Shown here piece by piece: positions 1,508 to 16,202 of a stretch of 26,916 nucleotides of DNA. The position numbers and the translations under genes were made by a program. The notes beneath the pieces were generated by a model. That model made no database searches and was not told where the DNA came from. It saw only the letters and a list, made by a program, of their open reading frames with translations. Origin of the DNA: an uncultured archaeon (GTDB lineage: Archaea > Halobacteriota > Archaeoglobi > Archaeoglobales > Archaeoglobaceae); assembly GCA_964654365.1 (NCBI GenBank), contig CAZZIT010000147.1:1-26916 (forward strand), in the 5' to 3' direction. How positions within the stretch are numbered: position 1 is the first letter of the stretch; every line of letters begins with the position of its first letter.

Positions 1508-2821
1508 CTAAGGCTGAAGTGCCGGTGTCGTCACTTCCCTGTGCTCGATCCACTCCCTCAGCCAGCTCTTGATCCTGTCAATGGTTCTTACCTCCACGTC
1601 GTATATCGTTATCATTCCGAGGAGCTCTCCCCTTCTCACGTCTCCGTCTGCTATCGGAAGGAAGACTGCCTTCTCGATCTCCTTCTCCTCCTCCACCTTG
1701 CTCACTCTTCTCTGAATCGTGTCCAGGACAATGCCAAATGGATGCCTCATTATTCCGAAGGGATAAACTATCGTATTCTTTGGAAGCTTCAGCTTCCTGA
1801 TAGAGATCATACAAACCTCTCCAGCCTTCAATCTCCTGCTCTCGTTTGCAATCAAAGGCTCCCATCTAGCAACTGGAGACCTCCTGAAGCCGTAGGGTTG
1901 CACCTTTACGGCAGTCCTTATCACGCCCCCTCCGCTTCTGTGAACCGTCGTAAATGACTTCTCTTCTCCTTTCAAAACTTCTCTCAGGTCCTCGAAATCT
2001 ATGAAGTAAACAGCCACTGCTCCGAGCATGTCGCCCTGCTCGATTTTGCCGTCTTCTACAGGCAGAAATATCGCATGGCTGAGCTTTCTTTCCTCCTCCA
2101 CCCTCTTTGGCTTCCCATGCTGGATTACGTCGACGAGAGTTCCGTAGGCATTTGCCGTAAATCCAGTCGGTGCGACAACCGTGTTCTTTGGTAGTGAAAT
2201 GCACCTTATCCTCAACTTAACCACTTCGTTTCGCCTCACGTTTCTGCTCTCATCAGCTATAACAGGCTCCAGAAGAGCTATGTGGACCCTTCTGTAGATT
2301 ATGTCGTCCATTCTAAGCGCCTTCCTGACCACGTTTCCATTTTCTTTCCAGGTCAGTGTTCCGGATCTCTGCTCCTTGACGATCTCGAAGTTCTGCTGGC
2401 CAAGCCCCAATTTTTTGCCGAAAAAGTCTGTTTTAACGTAAAATACTTTGATGACGCCGATCAAATCAGACTTCTTTATCACGCCATCCTCTAAGGGGAG
2501 AAATATAGCCTGACTTATGCACTTCTCCTCCTCTATCAACGATGGCCTGCCATATTCAACGACGCTAACAGTAGTACCGAAAGCGTGACGGGTTTCGTTC
2601 AAACAACCAACCATCGTATTGGCAGGAAGGGAAATTCTCTGAACGTTAACAACTGCAGGTTTTCCCTTTTCGACAGGAGTATCCTTTTCGGCAATCAGGG
2701 GCTTCAGGTGAGTAAAGGGAGCCATTCTGAACTCAGATGGCCTTAGCTCCAGCTCGATCTTTTCAAGTTTATCCCCAACGAGTCCAGACCAGTGTCGGAC
2801 TTCGAACTTCATATCCCCCAT
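1508..2821 (-). CDS. Protein of three tandem about 100-aa repeats, DUF22-like
   Basis: Three internal repeats sharing PLIA/PVIA...(I/L)xLPxNTxV...(H/N)(A/P)(F/Y)G...EEE(K/R)...A(I/V)FLPxxDG...(L/M)(I/L)G; this architecture is recalled for archaeal DUF22 proteins. Confidence 0.7.
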   Translation of the reverse strand: MGDMKFEVRHWSGLVGDKLEKIELELRPSEFRMAPFTHLKPLIAEKDTPVEKGKPAVVNVQRISLPANTMVGCLNETRHAFGTTVSVVEYGRPSLIEEEKCISQAIFLPLEDGVIKKSDLIGVIKVFYVKTDFFGKKLGLGQQNFEIVKEQRSGTLTWKENGNVVRKALRMDDIIYRRVHIALLEPVIADESRNVRRNEVVKLRIRCISLPKNTVVAPTGFTANAYGTLVDVIQHGKPKRVEEERKLSHAIFLPVEDGKIEQGDMLGAVAVYFIDFEDLREVLKGEEKSFTTVHRSGGGVIRTAVKVQPYGFRRSPVARWEPLIANESRRLKAGEVCMISIRKLKLPKNTIVYPFGIMRHPFGIVLDTIQRRVSKVEEEKEIEKAVFLPIADGDVRRGELLGMITIYDVEVRTIDRIKSWLREWIEHREVTTPALQP

Positions 2822-2842
2822 TATAACAATTAAACGTTACCC

Positions 2843-2856
2843 TCTATAAACTTTTC
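2843..2856 (-). promoter_or_regulatory. BRE+TATA promoter for the DUF22-like gene (possibly also GT4)
   Basis: GAAAAG-TTTATAGA on the minus strand, about 22 nt before ATG 2821. Confidence 0.65.
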
Positions 2857-2902
2857 TGCCACCTCAAGGAAAAGCCTAAATCCTTTCAGTATAAAGCTGA
2901 TC

Positions 2903-4192
2903 ATGGAAAGACCGATACTTCAAGTAGCTTTAGACCTCGTTGAGCTCAAAAGAGCTCTCGAGATCGCTCAGGAGGCAATAGAGGGTGGTGCAGACTGGTT
3001 GGAAGCTGGCACGCCACTGATCAAGAGCGAGGGAATGAATGCGGTTAGAGAGCTGAAGAGGGCATTCCGGGACCACAAGATAGTTGCAGACATGAAAACG
3101 ATCGACACTGGAGCGGTTGAAGTGGAAATGGCCGCGAAGAGCGGGGCAGACGTCGTGATAATTCTTGCTCTATCAAACGATGCCACCATTGCGGAAGCGA
3201 TTCGCGCTGGAAGAAAATATGGTTGCGCGATCATGGCTGACCTGATAAACCATCCAGATCCCGTGAAAAGAGCAAAAGAGCTTGAAGAAATGGGTGTCGA
3301 CTATTTAAACGTTCATGTAGGTATAGACCAGCAGATGCTCGGGATTGATCCAATGGAGGTCCTTAAAAATGTTGTCGGAAGTGTGAACATCCCGATTGCA
3401 ACAGCTGGAGGACTTGACGCTGAGAGAGCTTCTTTTTGCGTCTCTCTCGGGGCAAAGATCGTGATAGTCGGCAGTAACATTGTGAAGTCCAGAAACGTCG
3501 TAGAGTCGGCAAAAAAAGTTAGAGAAGCCATTGATCGTAAATCGGGAGTATACGTTAAGAAGAGTATGGAAGAGGAGACCCGGGAACTCCTCATGAGGGT
3601 TTCAACCCCCAACGTGAGCGATGCCATGCACCGCGCTAAGGCCATGAGGGGGATCTACCCTCTGGTGAGGGGCAAGAAGGTCGTTGGAAAGGCTGTTACT
3701 GTTAGCACGATGGATGGGGACTGGGCCAAGCCTGTCGAGGCGATTAATGTGGCTGCAGAAGGAGACGTTATCGTTATAAAGTGCTCCGGCGACACAGCTG
3801 CAGTCTGGGGAGAGCTCGCTACGAGGAGCTGTCTGAACAGAAAGATCGCTGGAGTTATAATCGACGGGGCTGTGAGAGATGTGGACGACATAAGAGCGCT
3901 CGGATTCCCCCTGTTTGCGAGAAGAGAAGTCCCCAACGCCGGAGAGCCAAAAGGATTCGGGGAGATAAACGTAAGAATTATCTGCGGAGGCATTGAGGTA
4001 AATCCAGGAGACTGGATCGTTGCAGACGACAATGGTGTTATGGTGATCCCGAAGCAAAGGGCCTATGAGATAGCGAGGAGAGCTCTTGAAGTGAAAAAGG
4101 CTGAGGACAGGATAAGGGCTGAGATAGAGGAGAAGGGGAGAACACTCGCGGATGTCATCGAGCTATACAAGTGGGAGAAAGTTAGACAATAG
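2903..4192 (+). CDS. Bifunctional 3-hexulose-6-phosphate synthase / RraA-like (HMG aldolase family) fusion
   Basis: HPS motifs LQVALD, EAGTPLIK, DMKTIDTG, AGGL in the N-half; RraA-like C-half with TPNVSDAM, AVWG, IIDGAVRD, GDWIVADDNGV. Confidence 0.9.
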   Translation: MERPILQVALDLVELKRALEIAQEAIEGGADWLEAGTPLIKSEGMNAVRELKRAFRDHKIVADMKTIDTGAVEVEMAAKSGADVVIILALSNDATIAEAIRAGRKYGCAIMADLINHPDPVKRAKELEEMGVDYLNVHVGIDQQMLGIDPMEVLKNVVGSVNIPIATAGGLDAERASFCVSLGAKIVIVGSNIVKSRNVVESAKKVREAIDRKSGVYVKKSMEEETRELLMRVSTPNVSDAMHRAKAMRGIYPLVRGKKVVGKAVTVSTMDGDWAKPVEAINVAAEGDVIVIKCSGDTAAVWGELATRSCLNRKIAGVIIDGAVRDVDDIRALGFPLFARREVPNAGEPKGFGEINVRIICGGIEVNPGDWIVADDNGVMVIPKQRAYEIARRALEVKKAEDRIRAEIEEKGRTLADVIELYKWEKVRQ

Positions 4193-4214
4193 TCGAAATC
4201 GCTATAGTCAATTA

Positions 4215-4228
4215 GTTAAATTTATAAG
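4215..4228 (+). promoter_or_regulatory. Putative TATA box for the regulator-HMGCS-thiolase-DUF35 operon
   Basis: GTTAAATTTATAAG, TTTATAA ending about 22 nt before GTG 4249. Confidence 0.55.
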
Positions 4229-4248
4229 CCGAGAGAAAAATTAGCTTT

Positions 4249-4929
4249 GTGGAACATAAAAGGTTTGCGGAGCGAGTTTGTGGCGAGATAGCGCTTGCAG
4301 AGCATCATGGAGAAGCAATGAAAAAATGGAGGCAGATATTCTCAATTTCGCAGAGCGAAATCGCCAGGAAGCTTGGCATCTCTCCCTCGGTAATCAGCGA
4401 CTATGAAGCTGGACGCAGAAGTCCCGGAGTCGCATTCATAAAAAAGTTTGTTCTCGCACTCATAGAAATTGACTCTCAGAGGCCGAATCCCGTGATTTCA
4501 AAGTATTTGGACCTTCCAGAGTTATCTTCCGCAATCATAGACCTCGCAGAGTATTCCCGGGGGGTTAAAATCGATGATTTCTGCTCGAAGATCGATGGAG
4601 AGAGACTCAACAACTTTGAAAGACTCATAAACGGACACACGGTTATAGACAGCATCAATGCCATTTTAACGCTGAGCGCTTACGACTTCTACAGACTCTT
4701 CGGTTTTACGAGCGAGAGGGCGCTTGTCTTCACGAAAGTCACGAGCGGAAGGTCGCCGCTGGTTGCTGTCAGGGTTTCGAGCTTGAAGCCCTCTGCTGTT
4801 GTTCTTCACGGCGTCTCAAAGGTTGACGAAATGGCGATAAAAATTGCAGAAGCTGAAAAGCTTCCGCTGATTAGGACCGAGCTGGAGATTGGCGAAATGA
4901 TAGATAGGCTGAGGAGGGATTTTGTGTGA
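4249..4929 (+). CDS. XRE-type HTH transcriptional regulator with C-terminal DRTGG-like domain (COG1709-like)
   Basis: [31 protein letters not shown]; C-terminal [13 protein letters not shown]...AVVLHG...KLPLI; GTGA overlap with HMGCS. Confidence 0.8.
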
Positions 4930-5954
4930 TCGGGATCGTTTCATACGGAACCTACATTCCGAAGTTCAGGATCAGAGTTGAGGAGATAGCAAGGATATGG
5001 GGTGAAGACCCCGAGGCCATCAAAAACAGCTTAGGAGTTGCGGAGAAGTCCGTTCCTGATTTGGATGAGGACACGGCGACAATGGCTGTGGAAGCTGGAA
5101 GAGAAGCTTTGCAGAGGGCAGGAATTCCACCAGAGAAAATAGGGGCTATATTCGTCGGCTCGGAAAGCCATCCCTACGCTGTTAAGCCGACCGCAACGAT
5201 CGTGGGCGAGGCTCTCGGAATCGGGAATTACTACTACTGCGCCGATCTCGAGTTTGCCTGCAAGGCCGCGACAGCAGGAATGCAGCTCTGCTACGCAATG
5301 GTCAAGGCGGGGATGATCGAATACGGAATGTCCATAGGCTCTGACACGGCCCAGTCAAGGCCCGGGGATGCGCTCGAATACACAGCCGCTGCAGGAGCTT
5401 CTGCGATATTAATCGGAAGGGATCCGATTGCAGAAATCGAGGCAACGGTTTCCTACACAAGCGACACACCTGACTTCTGGAGACGCGATCTTCAGCCCTA
5501 CCCGAGCCACGGAGGAAGATTCACTGGAGCTCCCGCCTATTTCAGGCACGTTACCTCTGCAGCTAAGAAACTGATGGAGACGTGCGGATACAGCGAGAAG
5601 GACTTCGACTACGCTGTATTCCACCAGCCGAACGCGAAGTTTCCTCAGAGAGTTGCCAGAATGCTCGGGTTCGATGAGAAGAAAATAGCTGATGGGATGC
5701 TTGTCAAGGCGATCGGGAACACCTATTCTGCGGCATCTCTGCTGGGCCTGTGCGGGATTTTAGATGTGGCAAAGCCTGACCAGAGGATTCTGCTCGTTTC
5801 TTTCGGCTCAGGAGCTGGAAGCGACGCCTTTGCGATCAGGGTTACGGAGAAGATCCTCAGCTACCCCCGGAGTCTAAGGATCTGGGACAAGGTGAAGAAC
5901 TGCGTTTACCTCGACTACGCGCTTTATCTGAAGCATAGGAGGATGATAAAATGA
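4926..5954 (+). CDS. Archaeal hydroxymethylglutaryl-CoA synthase
   Basis: [12 protein letters not shown] (E80), [10 protein letters not shown] (C112), FHQPN (H233) and GNTYS motifs all intact. Confidence 0.92.
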
Positions 5955-7102
5955 GGGTTGCGATCATTGGAGTCGGCTGCACGGAATTCGGTGAGCTCTG
6001 GGAAAAGAGCTTCAGGAGCATATTCCTTGAAGCCGGGATTGAGGCGCTAAGGGACTGCGGAATTGAGGGAAAGGAGATAGGGGCGATATATGTTGGTAAC
6101 ATGAGCGGAGGAAAGTTCATAGACCAGGAGCACATTGCTGCCTTGATTGCGGACCATGCTGGCCTCGCTGAGTTCGGAATTCCTGCCGTTAGAGTCGAAA
6201 ATGCAGATGCAAGCGGCGGATCTGCGTTTCGACAGGCTTTTATGGCCGTAGCTTCTGGAATGCACGATATAGTCATTGCAGCGGGAGTTGAGAAGGTTAC
6301 AGATTCCGTCGACCCGATGGGAGTTCTTTCAACCTCCGTCGATCAGGAGTGGGAGAGGTTCGTGGGAGCGAATCTTCCGGCGCTCTACGCAATAATGGCA
6401 AGGCTTCACATGCACGAATTCGGCACGACCGAAGAGGATCTCGCAAAAATAGCCGTTAAAAACCACAAAAATGCCGTTCACAATCCAAAAGCTCAGTTCA
6501 GAAAGGAAATAAGTGTCGAGGATGTTCTCTCCTCAGAAGTCATAGCTGATCCGCTTAAAGTGCTCGACTGCGCCCCCTTAAGCGACGGCGCTGCTGCGTT
6601 GATCCTCGCAAAAGAAGAGATTGCAAGAAAACTCTGCGATACACCCATCTTCGTCGAGGCCTGCACCCAGGCGAGCGATTACTTGGCCTTGCAGTGCAGA
6701 AAGGATCTGGTGACAATGGGATCAGTTCTCAAAGCCTCGAAAGAGGCTTACAGAATTGCGAGGACTGAGCCAAGAGAGATAGACGTTGCTGAGGTGCATG
6801 ACTCCTTCACAATTGCAGAGATCATGGCCTACGAAGACCTCGGATTTGCGAAAAAGGGAGAGGGAGCGAAACTGATAAGGGAGGGAGAGACAGAAATAGG
6901 TGGTAGGATCCCGGTGAACCCATCTGGAGGTTTGAAAGCCTGTGGGCACGCGGTTGGAGCTACAGGGATAAGGCAGATCGTTGAACTCGTTCTTCAGCTC
7001 CGCGGAGAGGCTGGAAAAAGGCAGGTTGATGCTGAAAAGGCTCTGGCCCTCAACGTTGGTGGAACCGGTGCGACTGCTGTGGTTACGATTTTGTCGAGGT
7101 GA
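5951..7102 (+). CDS. Archaeal acetoacetyl-CoA thiolase orthologue lacking both catalytic cysteines
   Basis: Colinear with methanogen mevalonate thiolases (KFGELWE-like start, GQEH-like [33 protein letters not shown]), but ENADASGG (D86) and VHDSF (S285); ATGA overlap with HMGCS. Confidence 0.88.
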
Positions 7103-7106
7103 TTTT

Positions 7107-7460
7107 ATGGTTCCGAGATTCTGGAGAAAGATAAGATACAGATATGACGTCATTGGCAGCTACTGCGAGAACTGCGGAAGCCACTACTATCCAAAAAGAG
7201 AACTCTGCCCAAAGTGTAGAAGGAAAGGAAAGCTTAGAGACGAGAATTTCCCCGATGAAGGAAAGGTCATAAGCTATACAATCGTAAACGGAAGGATCAT
7301 TGCGATGATCGAGCTGAAAAACGGTGCAAGGACCCTCGCAGAGGTGTGCGCCGACAGGATCGAGATCGGGATGAGGGTAAAGAAGGCCTTCAGAAGGTAT
7401 GGAGAGGACGGAGAAACGGGAATAATCTACTACGGAACCAAATTCGTCCCGATATGCTAA
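7107..7460 (+). CDS. DUF35 family Zn-ribbon/OB-fold protein (thiolase-HMGCS scaffold subunit)
   Basis: Real start is probably ATG 7107 (MVPRFWRKIRYRY), not 6981; CENC...CPKC ribbon, FRR..EDG..G.I.YG.KF.P C-terminus. Confidence 0.88.
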   Translation: MVPRFWRKIRYRYDVIGSYCENCGSHYYPKRELCPKCRRKGKLRDENFPDEGKVISYTIVNGRIIAMIELKNGARTLAEVCADRIEIGMRVKKAFRRYGEDGETGIIYYGTKFVPIC

Positions 7461-7857: not shown

Positions 7858-10206
7858 CTAAAAGAAGGCCTCAAGGCTTGTTTGCGAGGCTCCCCTGATC
7901 TTAGCTTCTGAAAATCCGAATCTCTCGAGAATCCTTAGCACCGCTGGAATTATCTGGTGCTCTATGTAGTAATCCTTATCCAGCTTCTTCATCTCCTCCC
8001 CTCCCTTCAGCCTGATCTTCAGATTCTCGCCGTCGAAGTGCTCGACCATATCGATCGGGTAAGCTCTGTCCCCAATGTTTCCAGCGCCCTTAACGACCAC
8101 AAAGCCAATTTTTGAGCCCACAGGATAGAATATGCCAACCTCCTCAGCCTTCTTTGCTGCCTTAACGTGCGCCTGTACAGCTTCATACTTCGAGGGCTTT
8201 TTCGTAAGTCCTTTGTAGATAATGATGTCCTCAAGTCTGACCTTTCCCTCCTTTATCGACTTCACGATCTCTCTGACATAATCCAGAGCTTTTTCGGGAT
8301 TCTTCTCCCTGAGAATTATCTCGATTACGGCCCTCTGAGCCCTCTTAGCCAGCTCGCACCAGTCTCCACGCCTGACTTCGAGTCCCCGAATTAGGATTTT
8401 CCCGTCAGCCGTAAGTCCTGCGTATCTCTTCTTTTCAACGAAGAAGATCGTCTCGAAGAGCTCGTCAAGCTCGATCTGAACTGGAAGCTTGATTGAGATC
8501 TCAGAGATTAGGTTGGAAACTTCCTCTTGAAGTTCTTTCAGGCTTTTTCCTGGCTTTGAAACAAAAATGCTGTCAGTATCTCCGTAAAGAACTTTAAATC
8601 CGAGTTCCTGGGCGATCTTTGCGGAAGTCTTTATGAAGTGCCTTCCCCAGGCAGTTGTGGCTTCAGCGCACTCCCTGCAGTACCATCTCGCACCAGTCCA
8701 CCCCATGTAGCCGTAGAAGGAATTTGTAAGCACTTTCAAGGTTTGCTGTTTTATGTCGAGGAGCTTATACTTCGGGTCGCCTTCGCTGAGCCCTCTCATC
8801 TCTCTCTTTATCTCCCTCCTCTTTTCTATCAGCATCCGCAGAATTCTCCTGAAAAATCCGTCTGGATGCTTTCTAAACCTGTAGCCAACCTCCGGGGCGA
8901 CATAACAGTCGTTACCACTCGTGATCGTGTCAGGGCTGACGTTGTAGGCTATCATGATCGACGGATACATGCTCGCAAAGTCAAGTTCCGCAACGTTTTC
9001 ATGCAGTCCCCGCTCCGGCTCTATTACAAAGGCTCCCTCGTAGCTTTCCATTGGCGTCTCTCTCGCATTTGGAGCCACTTCTCCGAGTTTTCTCGCCTCA
9101 CTCAGCAGAAGCCAGTCCACCTGCCTTCCCCTCCCCATTCTCGAAACATCGTCAAGCGGGAGCCTGATCAGCCTTGCAAGCTCGTAATGCATTGGGAGCA
9201 GTTCCTTGGCGATCATGTAGGTATGGATGACGTCTCTCCTTGCGTGAGCGAGAACCCTCTCTCTGTCCGTTTGCCAGTATCGATTTATGTCCTTGGCCTC
9301 TATGTCCTCGACGTCGATCTTGGCTCCTAAGAATTCCGCTATGTTTTCGAGTTTCTTGACCTTCACATCCGAAATTCGCAGAGCAATGTCGTAGAGGTCA
9401 ACGTTGAGCCTGCCTGCAATCTTTGGCCTTCCACCCTTGAATGTTACCGCACTGCCATCTCTTCCGACGTTAAGCGAGACCTTGAGCTTTTCAGCTCTCT
9501 TTCTCAGATAAGGCCAGTCAAAGGCATCCTGATTGTAGCCGACGATCACGTCGGGATCCACATGCCTGAGTCTTTCAACGAACCTTTGCAGGATCTCCCT
9601 TTCTCCGCCCTGGAGTATTTCCTCCTCATTTTCGCTTTCCCCCCATTTCATCGCTATAACTATCACTGGATCCCTCTCGGGGTCGGGCATCCCGAAAGTG
9701 GAAAGCATTTCGCAGTCGAAGGCAAAGATCTTCAATTCCGGGATTTCTTTGCTCACCCTCTCAATGCTCTCTATTTCATAGCTTCTGAGCTTTCCTTCAA
9801 TCTCTTTCCCCTCGATTGTTACGCCGTCGAGGCACGCAAGGTCTTTGTCTATCAAATAGCGGTAGGCAAAAGGTATATCTGCTTCTCTAACGTCCCCAAA
9901 CTGGGAGAAGTATTCCCTGAGCTTCGGAACGTGCTGGGGATGCTTTGCATATATCTTAAAAGCCGGAATCTTCTTTCCGAAGAAGCTAAGGTGCGTTTTT
10001 TCATACGAGTCCGGGGATATAACTTCCCTCCTCGTGCTCACCATCGCCTTCTGAATTATCTCCTCATCGATGTCAAGGACATAGAAATAAGGTTTGAAGC
10101 TTCCGTCATATGCCACAAAGGTTTCACGATCCTTACACCAGAGCCTAAGAACCGCTTTTTCGTTGATCGTGATGTATTCTGCATCCAGCAGCCAGCCCTC
10201 TATCAC
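7858..10206 (-). CDS. polB: Family B DNA polymerase (proofreading, no intein)
   Basis: Exo motifs FDCEM, GYNQDAFDWPYL; pol motifs DFASMYPSIM, KVLTNSFYGY, YGDTDS, KKRY; C-terminal PIP-box-like QTSLEAFF. Start moved to GTG 10206 (VIEGWLLDAEY); the track extension to 10359 is antisense to the next gene. Confidence 0.95.
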   Translation of the reverse strand: MIEGWLLDAEYITINEKAVLRLWCKDRETFVAYDGSFKPYFYVLDIDEEIIQKAMVSTRREVISPDSYEKTHLSFFGKKIPAFKIYAKHPQHVPKLREYFSQFGDVREADIPFAYRYLIDKDLACLDGVTIEGKEIEGKLRSYEIESIERVSKEIPELKIFAFDCEMLSTFGMPDPERDPVIVIAMKWGESENEEEILQGGEREILQRFVERLRHVDPDVIVGYNQDAFDWPYLRKRAEKLKVSLNVGRDGSAVTFKGGRPKIAGRLNVDLYDIALRISDVKVKKLENIAEFLGAKIDVEDIEAKDINRYWQTDRERVLAHARRDVIHTYMIAKELLPMHYELARLIRLPLDDVSRMGRGRQVDWLLLSEARKLGEVAPNARETPMESYEGAFVIEPERGLHENVAELDFASMYPSIMIAYNVSPDTITSGNDCYVAPEVGYRFRKHPDGFFRRILRMLIEKRREIKREMRGLSEGDPKYKLLDIKQQTLKVLTNSFYGYMGWTGARWYCRECAEATTAWGRHFIKTSAKIAQELGFKVLYGDTDSIFVSKPGKSLKELQEEVSNLISEISIKLPVQIELDELFETIFFVEKKRYAGLTADGKILIRGLEVRRGDWCELAKRAQRAVIEIILREKNPEKALDYVREIVKSIKEGKVRLEDIIIYKGLTKKPSKYEAVQAHVKAAKKAEEVGIFYPVGSKIGFVVVKGAGNIGDRAYPIDMVEHFDGENLKIRLKGGEEMKKLDKDYYIEHQIIPAVLRILERFGFSEAKIRGASQTSLEAFF

Positions 10207-10227
10207 GAGCTGAGTTGGCGCGGAAAG

Positions 10228-10265
10228 ATTTAAAGTTATCCTGAGAGGGGGAAAAATATTAAAAA
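10228..10265. promoter_or_regulatory. Back-to-back promoters for polB (minus) and the AsnC-top6B operon (plus)
   Basis: Minus: GATAAC-TTTAAAT (10240-10228), 22 nt above GTG 10206. Plus: GAAAAATATTAAAAA (10251-10265), about 21 nt above ATG 10286. Confidence 0.55.
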
Positions 10266-10285
10266 CTCCAAAGAAACTTAGAAAC

Positions 10286-10516
10286 ATGGTAGTCGGTGTA
10301 ACGCTTGTGAACGTTGTCGCTGGGAAAGAGAAGGAAGTATACGTGAAGATTAAGAACATGAAGAAGGTAAAGGACGTCTACCACGTGTTTGGCGAGTTCG
10401 ATTTTGTGGTCATAATCCACGCAGACAGCCTCTCCGAGCTGAACAAGACTGTGGACGAGATCAGAAGAATTGAAGGGGTTACAAAGACGCAAACGGTCGT
10501 CGGCGCCGAAATATGA
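10286..10516 (+). CDS. Stand-alone Lrp/AsnC ligand-binding (RAM) domain protein, no HTH
   Basis: 76 aa, [13 protein letters not shown]...I.....[19 protein letters not shown]...V..IR.IEGV..T.T; ATGA overlap with top6B. Confidence 0.85.
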
Positions 10517-12309
10517 GCGAGTTAAAGGAGATAAGCATAGCCGAATTTTTTGAAAAGAACAAGCACATCCTTGGTTACACGAATCCCGCGAGGGCGTTGA
10601 TAACGGTTGTGAAGGAGGCCGTAGACAACTCCCTTGATGCCTGCGAAGAAGCCGGAATTCTTCCGGACATCTTTGTGAGAATTTCCAACGTCGAAAATAA
10701 TAACTACAGGATCACCGTGGAAGATAATGGGCCAGGAATTAAAAAGGAACTCGTTGCGAGAGCATTCGGCAAGCTACTCTACGGTTCAAGATTTCATGAA
10801 ATAAGGCAGAGCAGGGGCCAGCAGGGCATAGGAATCTCAGCTGCAGTCTTGTATGCACAGCTGACCACTGGAAAACCAACCGTTGTCACGACCAAGCAGA
10901 TCGGAGCAGAAAAAGCTTACAGAGTTTTGCTTTACATAGATACGAAAAGGAATGAGCCCATCATTGAAAGTGAAGGGGAAGAAGACTGGTACATGCCACA
11001 CGGAACAAGGGTCGAATTCGAAATCTCTGGCAGCTACGTCAAGGACAGGAAGCAGAGTGTATTCGAATACCTCAAAGAGACCTCAGTCGTGAATCCGCAC
11101 GCAAAGATCACTTTTGTGGATCCCGAAGGAAACATATACGAGTTTAAGAGGTCGTCAAACGAAATGCCAAAACCCGCAAAAGCGATAAAGCCGCATCCAC
11201 ATGGTATAGAGCTTGGAAAGCTAATGGCCATGCTTAAGTTCACAGAGTCGCCAACGCTTAGGAAATTTCTAAAGGAGGAGTTCGTGAGGATCGGGGACAA
11301 AATTGCCGACGAAATCCTTGCAAAAGCAGGATTTTCGGGAAACGAGGATCCAAAGAAGCTTGGAAGGGAAGAGGCTGCAAAGCTTATTGAAGCTTTCAAG
11401 AGTGTTGAAGTACTTCCGCCGCCAGTTGACTGTCTCTCACCCATTGGTGAGGAGCTTCTCATGCGCAGTTTGATCTCCGAATACTCTCCGGAATTCGTCT
11501 ACGCGGTTACGAGAAGACCAAAGGTTTATTCCGGACATCCATTTCTCGTGGAGGCTGCAATTGCATACGGCGGAGAAATAAAGACAGAGAAGATCGTCCT
11601 CCTCAGGTTTGCAAACAAGATACCGCTTCTCTACCAGCAGGGTGGCTGTGCCCTAACGAGGGCAGTGGAGAGTATAAACTGGAAGAACTACGGACTTGAG
11701 CAGACAAAAGAAGAGCTGCCTTATGGAAATGCCGTAATCTTGGTCCACCTCGCCTCCACTAACATCCCCTACACCTCGGAATCGAAAGAGGCCATTTCTC
11801 CAATTCCAGAAATAATGGGCGAGATAAGACTCGCTCTTCAGGAAGTAGGAAGGAAGCTGAAGGAGTATCTGGACAGAAAAGAAAGACAGGAGGTAAAGAA
11901 GAAAAAAGAAGAGGTTATCGCAAAAATATTACCTTTAATTGCCAAAAAGGTATGCGAGGTGCTCGAAAAGGATTCCGTAGAGGTTGGCAGAATAGTTGCA
12001 AGGATTATGGGATATCTCCATGTGGAGAGGATCGTGAACGAGAGGAATGGTGTAAAGGAGGTCAAGATAGTCGTTTCAAACTTCACAAAGGCGAAGAGAG
12101 AGGTCAGGATTTTGGAGACATGCTCGGGAGAGGTTGAAGCTGATAATGCGAGAATTTCGGAGGGCAGGTATCCAACGATCGCATGGAATTTAACTCTGAA
12201 CCCCAATGAAGAGGTCGAACTCAGATATCGACTTAGGGGAGATGTCGTGAACAAAAACCCGATAGTCGAGGGGGTCGACACAACTATGCTCAGTGTTGTA
12301 ACTCGCTAA
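10513..12309 (+). CDS. top6B: DNA topoisomerase VI subunit B
   Basis: [41 protein letters not shown] (GHKL), [23 protein letters not shown]. Confidence 0.96.
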
Positions 12310-15023: not shown

Positions 15024-16202
15024 TCAGAAGTCCGTCATGATCCTGAACTGATCCGTATCGGGCTTTAGATGTGCCATGAACCTTCTCACCGCTCCTTCCA
15101 CATCCCTAGCCTTTGTGATCGCTCTACCAACGACTACGATGTCAGCACCGGCTGCGATAACTTCGGATACGTTCTCGGGCTTTATACCTCCCGCAACAGC
15201 CACAAGAACCCGATACTTCCTGATCTCCTTTGCAAGGGACCATGGTGGAACGCTCTGCTCGCTGTCTATGGCTCTGTGCAGCTCTACAACGTCGGGCTGT
15301 GCTTCTTTAACTATCTGATCCATTCTTTTCACCGGATCCTCCACGTTCAGCATATCAACGACCGCAAGCATTCCCGTCTTCTTCGCTTCGCTTACGCCCT
15401 TAGCGATCGTGCTGATCGGTGCCAGACCCGAGATCACGACAGCATTTGCCGTAGCGTCCGCGGCCATTCTTGCTTCAAGATTTCCGACATCGAGGGTTTT
15501 CAGATCGAGAATGAAGAAGGCATCTGGCTTCACATCTCTGAGCTTCAGAATAACCTCGCAACCGTATTTCTTAACTAAGGGCGTTCCCACTTCGAATATT
15601 ATGTGATCACTTTCTGGAATCTGCGAAAGCACGGAAATTACCTCCTCAAGGTCGGGAATGTCAAGGGCTATCTGCAGGTATGGCGGATCCCAGAGCTTCG
15701 TGAGCTTTCTTCCAACAAACGGATGGTGGCTGCGATCTTTCTCATATAGCATCGTACCCACGTCGGGGAAGTTCTGCATGGCTCTTTTGATCGCGAGCTT
15801 AGTCGCTCCGTAGTTGTAGTAGTAGATCTTGTGCTTGTTTTTTGCCATTGGATGTATGAAGACGCTAACGACTATCAGGTAGTCTTCCGCCCTTTCCTTT
15901 GGAATGTATCCCTCTTCAACTGCATCGGCAACTGCCTTCGCAACTGCAGCCTGTGCGGGACCAAAGATCAGCTCAGCCTGCTCCATGTTCCTGACAGTCA
16001 CCTTCGGAACTATCACTGCGGGAGGTTTCGTGATCAGGTTCGGTCTCAAAACTGCGAGGAGCGGCGTATGACCTGCTGAAAGCGTTGCAAGGGCGTTAGC
16101 AAAAGCTGCTGCGACCGGACTGTCTTTTGTGCCGATTAAGAGATCAACGTGAGCAACTTCGTAGCCCTCGCCGATCAGAGCTTCGCCAACCCTGAACTCC
16201 AT
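15024..16202 (-). CDS. fae-hps: Bifunctional formaldehyde-activating enzyme / 3-hexulose-6-phosphate synthase
   Basis: Fae domain GEALIG...AHVDLLIG...GHTPLLAV.RPN...PKVT...GPAQAAVAKAV...VFIHP; HPS domain LQIALD, EVGTPL, DLKTLDVG, AGGI, VGRAIT. Confidence 0.95.
   Translation of the reverse strand: MEFRVGEALIGEGYEVAHVDLLIGTKDSPVAAAFANALATLSAGHTPLLAVLRPNLITKPPAVIVPKVTVRNMEQAELIFGPAQAAVAKAVADAVEEGYIPKERAEDYLIVVSVFIHPMAKNKHKIYYYNYGATKLAIKRAMQNFPDVGTMLYEKDRSHHPFVGRKLTKLWDPPYLQIALDIPDLEEVISVLSQIPESDHIIFEVGTPLVKKYGCEVILKLRDVKPDAFFILDLKTLDVGNLEARMAADATANAVVISGLAPISTIAKGVSEAKKTGMLAVVDMLNVEDPVKRMDQIVKEAQPDVVELHRAIDSEQSVPPWSLAKEIRKYRVLVAVAGGIKPENVSEVIAAGADIVVVGRAITKARDVEGAVRRFMAHLKPDTDQFRIMTDF

Follow-up and report, generated by a model that had tools for sequence, protein, structure and literature searches.

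Archaea are said to meet the uphill first step of isoprenoid lipid synthesis almost universally with a thiolase/HMG-CoA synthase (HMGCS)/DUF35 complex. The nucleophile of its thiolase is a Cys, as in every working thiolase known. In the present study, we analysed a window (the whole stretch of DNA, 26,916 nucleotides, from an uncultured member of the Archaeoglobaceae) in which this position is Asp and the second catalytic Cys is Ser, in a subunit that is still encoded between HMGCS and DUF35. The question raised by this locus is what such a subunit does in a mevalonate operon. The first-pass annotation had offered two answers, a dead scaffold or a new chemistry. The sequence evidence favours a modification of the first: the subunit would be a non-catalytic partner whose pocket is still constrained and which is not simply dead.

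The operon and its thiolase-fold subunit

The locus is a conserved four-gene unit on the forward strand. It is opened by a protein of 226 aa with an XRE-type helix-turn-helix (4249..4929; Pfam HTH_3), whose 3' end overlaps the start of HMGCS (4926..5954; NCBIfam NF003274, 551 bits against a cut-off of 244; 6ESQ chain I, E 6.6e-130). The HMGCS stop and the thiolase start overlap in ATGA at 5951-5954, and an AGGAGG ribosome-binding site read from the sequence (5937..5942) stands 8 nt 5' of the thiolase ATG. The SCP2-type thiolase-fold subunit of 383 aa follows (5951..7102), and then the DUF35 protein (7107..7460) with its zinc ribbon and OB fold (Pfam zf-ChsH2 and OB_ChsH2_C; 6ESQ chain E, E 2.3e-28). 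Coupling of the thiolase to an HMGCS with intact E80, C112 and H233 had been claimed before, and alignment to the HMGCS of 6ESQ bears this out and adds N265 to complete the catalytic tetrad, which does not vary among 32 Asp-clade and 11 canonical loci. The DUF35 zinc ribbon likewise has all four Cys in place (C20/C23/C34/C37). The genes around the thiolase in the window are HTH, HMGCS, DUF35, SpoVG and PolB, and no second thiolase was found within the window.

The subunit is a full-length orthologue of the mevalonate-operon thiolase, as the first-pass annotation had it. It matches the Methanothermococcus thermolithotrophicus thiolase of 6ESQ over residues 3-382 (phmmer E 5.3e-115, about 50% identity), and its AF2 model (pTM 0.90) was superimposed by Foldseek on 6ESQ_A with a TM of 0.95 and an rmsd of 1.7. 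It scored 567 bits with the NCBIfam subfamily model NF004720, above the cut-off of 420, and 554 bits with the equivalog NF053570 (AcCoTHIOL_METTL), below the cut-off of 600. In the 6ESQ alignment, Asp86 (GAT, 6206..6208, in VENADASGG) falls at the nucleophile position, under the Cys of EAACASG, and Ser285 (TCC, 6803..6805, in VHDSF) falls under the acid/base Cys of HDCF; both codons and both motifs are as first read. The two histidines are also retained, namely His283 of HDxF (6797..6799; oxyanion hole 1), which is invariant in 119/119 members of the Asp clade and 25/25 canonical thiolases, and His333 of GHA (6947..6949, in GHAVG; activating His and oxyanion hole 1), which is invariant too. 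Of the two canonical motifs given earlier for archaeal orthologues, the Cys of the EAACASG-type motif stands, but HDCF is not universal, since 30 of the 105 Cys-type representatives, the P. furiosus thiolase 7YVY among them, read HDAF. The loss of C285 alone is for this reason not diagnostic, and the loss of C86 is.

Spread of Asp86 and selection on the subunit

Asp was found at position 86 in all 120 closest database proteins and at all 33 Archaeoglobales genome loci, and a residue-by-residue comparison gave Asp in 119/119 clade members against Cys in 25/25 canonical operon thiolases. Codon 86 is GAT at 29 and GAC at 4 of the 33 Asp loci, against TGC in 11/11 canonical relatives. The step from TGC to GAT takes two base changes, which confirms the earlier count of at least two for Cys to Asp. 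Position 285 is Ser in 110 clade members, Val in 8 and Leu in 1, and all four TCN codons are in use for Ser285 among the clade. The order HTH-HMGCS-thiolase-DUF35 is kept at the 33 Archaeoglobales loci and also in the canonical Methanocellales and JdFR-42. The HTH homologue lies directly 5' of HMGCS at all Archaeoglobales loci, A. veneficus included, and beyond this order in JdFR-42, Methanocellales, Met33H, L041, L044/45 and L086.

The fixed differences that define the clade are C86D, M116V and F142L only (plus C285S/V/L), and clade-specific changes are almost absent from HMGCS and from DUF35. Val116 (6296..6298; VEKM/VTD) and Leu142 (6374..6376) stand where 25/25 canonical thiolases have Met and Phe, respectively; both are fixed, and the change at 142 recurs in other Cys-less lineages. 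P334A (GHP to GHA) and H367L were considered as clade-diagnostic and rejected, as GHA and AANVGG are also read in the M. thermolithotrophicus enzyme, which is active. Over 119 sequences, down to about 65% identity, D86, H283, D284, H333 and G370/G371 are invariant and N368 is kept in 116/119. Canonical operon thiolases share 82 positions with a conservation of at least 90%; of these, the Asp clade keeps 61, has 5 switched and fixed, and varies at 16, mostly conservatively.

In the neighbour-joining (NJ) tree, the Asp clade is monophyletic (bootstrap 100/100); its sister group may be either the canonical JdFR-42/Methanocellales (39/100) or P0121/L041/Methanomassiliicoccales. JdFR-42, a deep Archaeoglobi lineage, and the Methanocellales are canonical at both positions (Cys/Cys). 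It is mainly because JdFR-42, a member of the Archaeoglobi, is canonical that the losses in Archaeoglobales and Methanomassiliicoccales are taken to be independent. The best explanation is that the changes from Cys86 to Asp and from the HDCF Cys to Ser arose in the common ancestor of Archaeoglobales.

The subunit is under purifying selection. Relaxed selection, which would have pointed to simple decay, was looked for, and the dN/dS of the Asp-clade thiolase was 0.03-0.05, matching the value for the adjacent HMGCS over the same pairs of genomes and not exceeding the 0.04-0.08 of canonical clades, as calculated from 6 Asp-clade and 8 canonical pairs with dS < 1.5, dS being saturated for most pairs.

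The role of a thiolase subunit without its cysteines

We judge the chances to be about even that this is a non-thiolytic, ligand-binding partner which HMGCS needs, and that acetoacetyl-CoA comes from canonical thiolase/DUF35 pairs. Loss of the acyl-accepting Cys would close the ping-pong route of Claisen condensation and thiolysis via an acetyl-S-enzyme, and the need of HMGCS for the subunit would explain why it is kept at an HMGCS-like stringency. The pocket would remain in use, most likely by binding acyl-CoA, capturing acetoacetyl-CoA or CoA and passing it to HMGCS. Asp86 would cap the active-site helix at its N terminus and pair with the histidines in place of the thiolate; in the AF2 model it is two positions ahead of helix 88-101. 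Acetoacetyl-CoA would be made elsewhere, by Cys/HDCF/GHP thiolase-DUF35 pairs of the beta-oxidation type. We infer no thiolase activity, a role in CoA binding or assembly, an external supply of acetoacetyl-CoA and a structural role of Asp.

Several observations are consistent with this explanation. In the M. thermolithotrophicus complex, both active-site clefts are reportedly fused into one CoA-binding chamber, and DUF35 is said to staple the two enzymes. Lost catalytic residues, purifying selection and a conserved partnership are found together here, and this combination is one mark of a pseudoenzyme. The pocket has not been abandoned, as both oxyanion-hole histidines and the GG loop do not vary and N368 hardly does. 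Moreover, a passage of PMC12960953 that cites Vogeli 2018 states that, expressed singly, archaeal HMGS shows no activity and ACAT is insoluble.

Other thiolases that could supply acetoacetyl-CoA are present in the order. Canonical thiolases (C/HDCF/GHP in 118/120) are encoded in A. fulgidus, A. neptunius, A. sulfaticallidus and Geoglobus, and in A. fulgidus (canonical P0341; Asp-type P0052) and A. neptunius they stand alongside the Asp form. At one locus (L008), 4 kb separate the Asp-type operon from a canonical thiolase, which belongs to a thiolase-DUF35-acyl-CoA dehydrogenase-crotonase cluster. Annotated acetyl-CoA acetyltransferases number 13 in A. neptunius and two in A. veneficus (PMC8322695). 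Against an external supply, A. profundus is without two of the four beta-oxidation enzymes.

The state of the pocket also counts against a silent partner. A pure scaffold would be expected to drift there, as the operon thiolases of Thermoplasmata do (for these and Methanomassiliicoccales, nucleophile S/G/A/D, H333 often N/Q/R, N368 and F286 variable), and the Archaeoglobales pocket is invariant but for N368, which is nearly so; the Thermoplasmata set is phylogenetically deeper than the Asp clade, which confounds this comparison of degeneration. C86D, M116V and F142L, switched and then frozen, read as the signature of a function that would be changed, not lost. At the nucleophile position, Asp is the commonest non-Cys residue (12 of 41 residue-bearing representatives, 4 further rows being gaps), and its recurrence suggests that Asp is specifically favoured. 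It arose in several separate lineages, with an HMGCS operon in every case of known context, and one other Asp-type archaeon has it in a lipid operon of the order GGR-GGGPS-G1PDH-HMGCS-THL-DUF35-prenyl synthase.

These same observations feed the principal alternative, unlikely but a serious contender, that the subunit is still an enzyme, Cys-independent, and that the complex makes acetoacetyl-CoA or performs another C-C reaction feeding HMGCS. Asp86 could be the general base, the part that Asp plays towards acetyl-CoA in citrate and malate synthases; it could accept the acyl group on its carboxylate, forming a mixed anhydride in the manner of class III CoA-transferases; or it could build with His283 and His333 a 2-His-1-carboxylate metal site that would stabilise the acyl-CoA enolate. 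The invariance of D86 despite synonymous codon turnover argues for such chemistry, as do the invariant histidines and GG loop with the nearly invariant N368, the co-fixed M116V and F142L, which place smaller side chains beside Asp (F142L recurring in Cys-less lineages), and the repeated origin of Asp in HMGCS operons of other archaea. However, the base for enolising the second acetyl-CoA is gone, position 285 being S, V or L and therefore not catalytic; in the heat at which these hyperthermophiles grow, an acetyl-aspartyl anhydride would break down very readily; and the canonical thiolases in several Archaeoglobales genomes mean that a new activity is not required. We know of no Asp nucleophile in the thiolase superfamily, and no precedent for one was found in our literature searches. 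Nucleophile-less thiolase-fold enzymes such as Ltp2 and Sal can nonetheless be catalytic (PMC12329534). The fullest version of the proposal is a longer shot still: that Asp86, alone or with His283/His333 in a 2-His-1-carboxylate and possibly metal-binding arrangement, supports Cys-independent C-C chemistry in the thiolase fold, so that Archaeoglobales and other archaeal Asp-type complexes would make acetoacetyl-CoA or HMG-CoA by a mechanism new to the superfamily.

It is improbable, in our estimate, that the subunit serves as a regulatory sensor, whose pocket would bind acetyl-CoA, acetoacetyl-CoA or CoA and tune HMGCS allosterically. A ligand-binding pocket conserved without the catalytic Cys and the obligate association with HMGCS would suit such a role, but by sequence it is indistinguishable from the HMGCS-partner explanation, of which it is a variant. 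The first-pass annotation had also suggested a relocated catalytic residue in the Cys of KACGH (Cys331, 6941..6943), so that the protein would be an ordinary thiolase whose active site is rearranged around this or another Cys. Cys331 is two residues ahead of the catalytic His333 and is Cys in 111/119 clade members, but canonical relatives with Cys86 in place have it too (JdFR-42, Methanocellales, Met33H; 14/25), it is Phe in 8 of the 119 Asp-type sequences (L016, L027 and others), and the invariant columns of alignment A1 hold no Cys. This residue appears to be ancestral and non-essential; its distribution contradicts a moved nucleophile, which we hold to be very improbable. Finally, nothing beyond the odd residues themselves speaks for an error of sequencing or assembly, or for a pseudogene in decay. 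This reading is refuted by the agreement of over 150 independent sequences, from both isolates and metagenome-assembled genomes (120/120 homologues and 33/33 independent Archaeoglobales assemblies concur, with both Asp codons), by the two base changes needed, on account of which a single error had rightly been thought unlikely, by the intact frame with its ribosome-binding site and translational coupling, by the dN/dS of 0.03-0.05 and by the confident AF2 model.

These findings indicate that a whole order, including the model organism A. fulgidus, keeps the complex minus the catalytic cysteines of its thiolase, and that several other archaeal lineages do likewise. Since Asp86 is order-wide and under strong selection, the first isoprenoid step in Archaeoglobales must differ from that of the textbook archaeal complex. 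No published description of a Cys-less, Asp-type mevalonate thiolase was found. If the subunit is silent, it would be a clean natural pseudoenzyme retained for a shared CoA-binding site, the first mevalonate step would be a case of non-orthologous displacement, and channelling of the intermediate would be dispensable where other thiolases exist. If it is active, a much-studied superfamily would gain a new type of catalysis. In both cases pathway annotation is affected, as JGI calls these genes acetyl-CoA C-acetyltransferase, and the result bears on metabolic models of Archaeoglobi and on isoprenoid engineering with this complex.

Comparison with known systems

A parallel that speaks for the partner explanation is found in Thermoplasmata and Methanomassiliicoccales (P0123, P0124, P0130, P0138, P0140, L041, L044/45), where an HMGCS-THL-DUF35 operon has likewise lost both Cys. 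There the decay is further advanced, and the sequences fall on separate branches of the NJ tree, which has little resolution at depth. One such Cys-less operon has a fully canonical bacterial-type thiolase and a 3-hydroxyacyl-CoA dehydrogenase as divergent neighbours. The M. thermolithotrophicus complex (6ESQ/6ET9; Vogeli et al. 2018) shares the operon position, the HDxF and GHx histidines, N368 and the GG loop, but it has Cys85 where Asp86 stands here and the HDCF Cys where Ser285 stands, and it differs also at M116V and F142L.

ST0096 of Sulfolobus tokodaii (4YZO), another archaeal protein with an SCP2-type thiolase fold, also lacks both Cys (DNTSGSGG and HDMA; E 2e-68, TM 0.85), with 35% identity to the window thiolase, but it has Ser and not Asp at the nucleophile position. 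Literature look-ups for 4YZO and 7YVY yielded no useful publication. The KSQ/chain-length-factor ketosynthases (Cys to Gln) and TbSLP also replaced the nucleophile by a polar residue and kept a two-His (or His/Asn) site, and KSQ ketosynthases retain malonyl decarboxylase activity. This activity is retained in TbSLP as well (PMC12329534). Both belong to another branch of the family and have another residue, and no malonyl-CoA link is evident for the Archaeoglobales thiolase.

Ltp2 and Sal (6OK1; PMC12329534), the former having been put forward earlier as a precedent, are SCP2-thiolase folds with no nucleophilic Cys and a DUF35 partner, as here. The precedent does not transfer directly, since they have a catalytic Tyr for the HDxF His (YDHF/YDCY) and act on steroid side chains (PMC12329534), whereas the window subunit keeps this His in HDSF, lies in a mevalonate operon and has about 27% identity to them. 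The context of steroid side-chain degradation (hydratase ChsH/Shy) is absent around the Asp-type thiolase in the window.

The Friedel-Crafts acylases PhlACB and MucABC (5M3K, 9VBO; PMC12960953) are likewise built of three proteins, an architecture that stems from the archaeal complex, and one of their subunits is catalytically silenced. In these, the thiolase-like subunit (PhlC/MucB) keeps its Cys and is without HDxF, and the silent one is the HMGCS-like partner, which is without the E-C-H-N tetrad (PMC12960953). The Archaeoglobales complex is the reverse: its thiolase has lost the Cys but not HDxF, and its HMGCS has the whole tetrad.

The cysteine-less thiolase and its operon

The open reading frame at 5951-7102 (+) codes for a thiolase-fold subunit of 383 amino acids without the catalytic cysteines, and an AGGAGG site is found at 5937-5942 (+) ahead of its start. 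As read from the sequence, codon 86 at the nucleophile position is GAT (6206-6208, +; Asp86) and codon 285, at the position of the HDCF cysteine, is TCC (6803-6805, +; Ser285). The best solved relative was the acetoacetyl-CoA thiolase of 6ESQ/6ET9, the Methanothermococcus thermolithotrophicus thiolase/HMG-CoA synthase (HMGCS)/DUF35 complex (E 5.3e-115, residues 3-382). In the alignment to the 6ESQ thiolase, Asp86 falls on the Cys of EAACASG and Ser285 on the Cys of HDCF, and H283 and H333 are retained. By NCBIfam scores the protein belongs to thiolase subfamily PRK06064 (567 bits against a cut-off of 420), and its 554 bits do not reach the 600 required by the equivalog model of the M. thermolithotrophicus acetyl-CoA acetyltransferase. 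The AlphaFold2 model, with 51 homologues as input, was confident (pTM 0.90) and superposed on 6ESQ chain A with a TM of 0.95 and an rmsd of 1.7 Å. In this model D86 lies two residues ahead of helix 88-101, in its N-cap region. Thiolases put their nucleophile at a helix N-cap region, and the role of the helix dipole is well established.

The thiolase start overlaps the HMGCS stop (ATGA, 5951-5954), giving translational coupling, and the DUF35 gene begins five bases past the thiolase stop. The HMGCS matched 6ESQ chain I (E 6.6e-130) with E80, C112, H233 and N265 present, and the DUF35 protein matched chain E (E 2.3e-28) with four zinc-ribbon cysteines; each of them has only two small changes specific to the Asp clade. 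Every detail observed in the first-pass annotation, namely Asp86 and Ser285, the full-length ORF, both histidines, the coupling and the intact HMGCS, was confirmed by the sequence and the 6ESQ alignments. The DUF35 protein (7107-7460, +) has about 10 residues fewer between the zinc ribbon and the OB fold than its M. thermolithotrophicus counterpart, seen as a gap in their alignment.

An HTH_3/XRE protein of 226 amino acids (4249-4929, +) overlaps the HMGCS start with its 3' end. Its homologue precedes HMGCS in all Archaeoglobales loci, A. veneficus included, and stands in the same place in JdFR-42, Methanocellales, Met33H, locus L041, Methanomassiliicoccales and locus L086; therefore, the conserved unit consists of four genes, and this protein may regulate the mevalonate entry complex or belong to it as a fourth component. 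The remaining window is ordinary Archaeoglobaceae housekeeping DNA, and no second thiolase was found in its 26,916 nt. Two distinct 3-hexulose-6-phosphate synthase fusions occur within these 27 kb (2903-4192, +, and 15024-16202, -), one joining Hps to an RraA-like domain (NF005442), the other Fae to Hps. In the family B DNA polymerase ORF (7858-10359, -), the first ~60 residues are of low complexity and rich in Phe, Thr and Ser before the conserved N-terminus, and the true start probably lies further downstream than the one listed.

Spread of Asp86 and selection on it

The best 120 database homologues (67-92% identity) are Archaeoglobaceae proteins, including those of A. fulgidus, A. veneficus and A. 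neptunius, and all 120 have Asp at the nucleophile position. Public databases name such proteins 'thiolase domain-containing protein' (NCBI) or 'acetyl-CoA C-acetyltransferase' (JGI). Among 80 loci from a scan of species-representative genomes, Asp86/Ser285 was present in 33/33 Archaeoglobales/Archaeoglobaceae loci, with the order HMGCS-thiolase-DUF35 in all of them wherever the contig reaches far enough; in A. veneficus the operon reads HTH-HMGCS-THL(D)-DUF35-ferredoxin-GGR, where THL(D) is the Asp-type thiolase and GGR geranylgeranyl reductase. Next in relatedness come JdFR-42, a MAG from a deep branch of Archaeoglobi (62% identity), together with five Methanocellales and one Methanosarcinales MAG; they share the operon and have canonical EAACASG, HDCF and GHP. 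The Asp clade was monophyletic in 100/100 NJ bootstraps.

Within this clade Asp86 is encoded by GAT in 29 cases and by GAC in 4, and all four TCN codons occur at 285, so both residues have persisted despite long synonymous turnover; canonical relatives have TGC or TGT at both codons. In pairs with unsaturated dS, the dN/dS of the Asp-type thiolase was 0.031-0.048, compared with 0.032-0.062 for HMGCS in the same genome pairs and mostly 0.04-0.08 for canonical thiolases (0.39 in one pair that is nearly identical, dS 0.03). Across the clade, thiolase and HMGCS lose amino-acid identity in parallel, and selection on the Asp-type thiolase is not relaxed. Asp86 is a real, clade-wide and selected feature of a known complex.

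At the nucleophile position, the 150 best representatives of clusters built at 50% identity had C 105, D 12, S 10, P 7, G 6, E 3, A 2 and N 2, with 4 gap rows, and Asp-type proteins stood on several separate branches of the tree. Outside Archaeoglobales these were in HMGCS operons wherever the context was readable: in a seven-gene lipid operon (L081, 1-6540; GGR-GGGPS-G1P dehydrogenase-HMGCS-THL(D)-DUF35-polyprenyl synthase, GGGPS being GGGP synthase, PcrB), as G1P dehydrogenase-HMGCS-THL(D)-DUF35 (L084), as HMGCS-THL(D)-DUF35 (L085) and as HTH-HMGCS-THL(D) with HDCF retained (L086). A Thermoproteota MAG has an Asp-type protein (L083) and a canonical thiolase (L047) in the same assembly. Thermoplasmata and Methanomassiliicoccales carry more degenerate thiolases in the same operon, with S, G or A at the nucleophile and, in many, N, Q or R for the GHP histidine. 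Those of Methanomassiliicoccales, a group not known for beta-oxidation, read EGGGACGG, HDNY and GQP (L044, 2269-3567; L045, 5860-7158), with Gly at the nucleophile and a Cys two residues further on. In one Thermoplasmata MAG (L089), an HMGCS-THL(Ser-type)-DUF35 operon (2458-5059, +) is divergently adjoined by a canonical bacterial-type thiolase (CGSG / NEAY / GHP / CLGGG) with 3-hydroxyacyl-CoA dehydrogenase (232-2259, -), an arrangement that looks like displacement of the catalytic thiolase. Boucher et al. reportedly found in 2001 that archaeal class II HMG-CoA reductase is confined to Archaeoglobales and Thermoplasmatales. The A. fulgidus enzyme is of class II (PMC13488460). Both this class and the Cys-less operon thiolases occur in these two groups, which may mean that the early part of the mevalonate pathway was remodelled in a linked way.

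The altered pocket and its possible role

A comparison of 119 Asp-type sequences with 25 operon thiolases of the canonical type gave no more than five positions that are fixed in both groups yet different: C86D, M116V, F142L, P334A and H367L. P334A and H367L were dropped as diagnostic changes, as GHA and AANVGG also occur in the active enzyme of M. thermolithotrophicus. Position 285 is S in 110, V in 8 and L in 1 of the clade. The pocket residues E83, S88, H283, D284, F286, N323, G326-K329, G332, H333, N368 (116/119) and G370/G371 are common to both groups and invariant or nearly so. Canonical enzymes share 82 positions with a conservation of 90% or more, of which the Asp clade has kept 61, switched and fixed 5 and made 16 variable, mostly by conservative swaps (S/T, L/I, Y/F, A/G). 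Position 142 is Phe in 25/25 canonical operon thiolases (Leu142 codon of the window, 6374-6376) and Leu or another non-aromatic residue in many other Cys-less lineages (database proteins P0121, P0123, P0127, P0130, P0134, P0195, P0261); its loss appears to be a convergent, independent companion of nucleophile loss.

Characterised thiolases work via an acetyl-S-enzyme intermediate on the nucleophilic Cys; with Cys86 absent, this intermediate cannot form. The simplest account, to which we give about an even chance, is that the subunit was retained since HMGCS depends on it to assemble and to bind CoA. Free canonical thiolases would have taken over its catalytic role, its frozen pocket would go on binding acyl-CoA, and Asp86 would cap the helix and pair with the histidines. 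Archaeal HMGS reportedly was inactive and the thiolase insoluble when each was expressed alone, and the two clefts form one fused CoA-binding chamber joined by DUF35 (PMC12960953). In one Archaeoglobaceae MAG (L008), a beta-oxidation-type cluster (8810-12306, -) follows 4 kb downstream of the Asp-type operon; it encodes a canonical thiolase (C / HDCF / GHP), DUF35, acyl-CoA dehydrogenase and enoyl-CoA hydratase (crotonase) and is absent at the corresponding place in the window. Of the best 120 homologues of this thiolase, 118 were C/C/H and two had no score at the GHP motif; A. fulgidus, A. neptunius, A. sulfaticallidus and Geoglobus acetivorans are among the organisms represented. Acetyl-CoA C-acetyltransferase genes are reported to number 13 in A. 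neptunius and two in A. veneficus (PMC8322695); A. profundus is without two of four beta-oxidation enzymes, the thiolase not being explicitly among them (PMC3035285).

The main alternative, possible but rather unlikely, is a new kind of catalysis in the pocket, where Asp would serve as base, acyl acceptor or metal ligand with the two histidines. The invariance of D86, H283 and H333 (N368 in 116/119), the co-fixation of M116V and F142L and the repeated, independent origin of Asp count for such chemistry; S, V or L at position 285 leaves no second base, an anhydride on Asp would be labile at high temperature, and other thiolases at hand reduce the need for it. Less probable still is an allosteric sensor, which by sequence is inseparable from the account of a non-catalytic partner. 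The relocated KACGH nucleophile proposed in the first-pass annotation is very improbable: Cys331 is ancestral, being found in canonical JdFR-42, Methanocellales and Met33H proteins, and dispensable, being Phe in 8/119 Asp-type sequences, and the invariant columns of the clade alignment hold no Cys. Sequencing error is contradicted by Asp in all 120 homologues and 33 Archaeoglobales loci and, selection not being relaxed (the relaxed selection in close relatives that would signal simple decay was not seen), decay is ruled out, so that together they deserve practically no weight.

Comparison with known systems

No description of an Asp-for-Cys thiolase was found in the full-text literature searched, whose coverage leaves out the primary paper of the complex; in that literature Asp86 is a previously undescribed variant of the thiolase/HMGCS/DUF35 complex, and the function of the subunit can be tested directly. 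The statement that archaeal orthologues have EAACASG and HDCF holds for JdFR-42, Methanocellales and 6ESQ, but HDCF is not shared by all Cys-type relatives. The P. furiosus thiolase PFC_04095 (7YVY) has a Cys nucleophile but HDAF, as do 30/105 Cys-type cluster representatives, so presumably active archaeal thiolases do not all have the HDCF cysteine. ST0096 of S. tokodaii (4YZO), an archaeal Cys-less relative with a solved structure, has Ser at the nucleophile, and no publication on it was found. The window protein is orthologous to the 6ESQ thiolase, but two catalytic features that define that enzyme are missing, and its score lies under the cut-off of the curated equivalog. Nor is it an Ltp2/Sal aldolase: the HDxF histidine, which it keeps, is replaced by Tyr in those. 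In PhlACB/MucABC the HMGCS-like subunit is the silent one, the mirror image of the complex described here.
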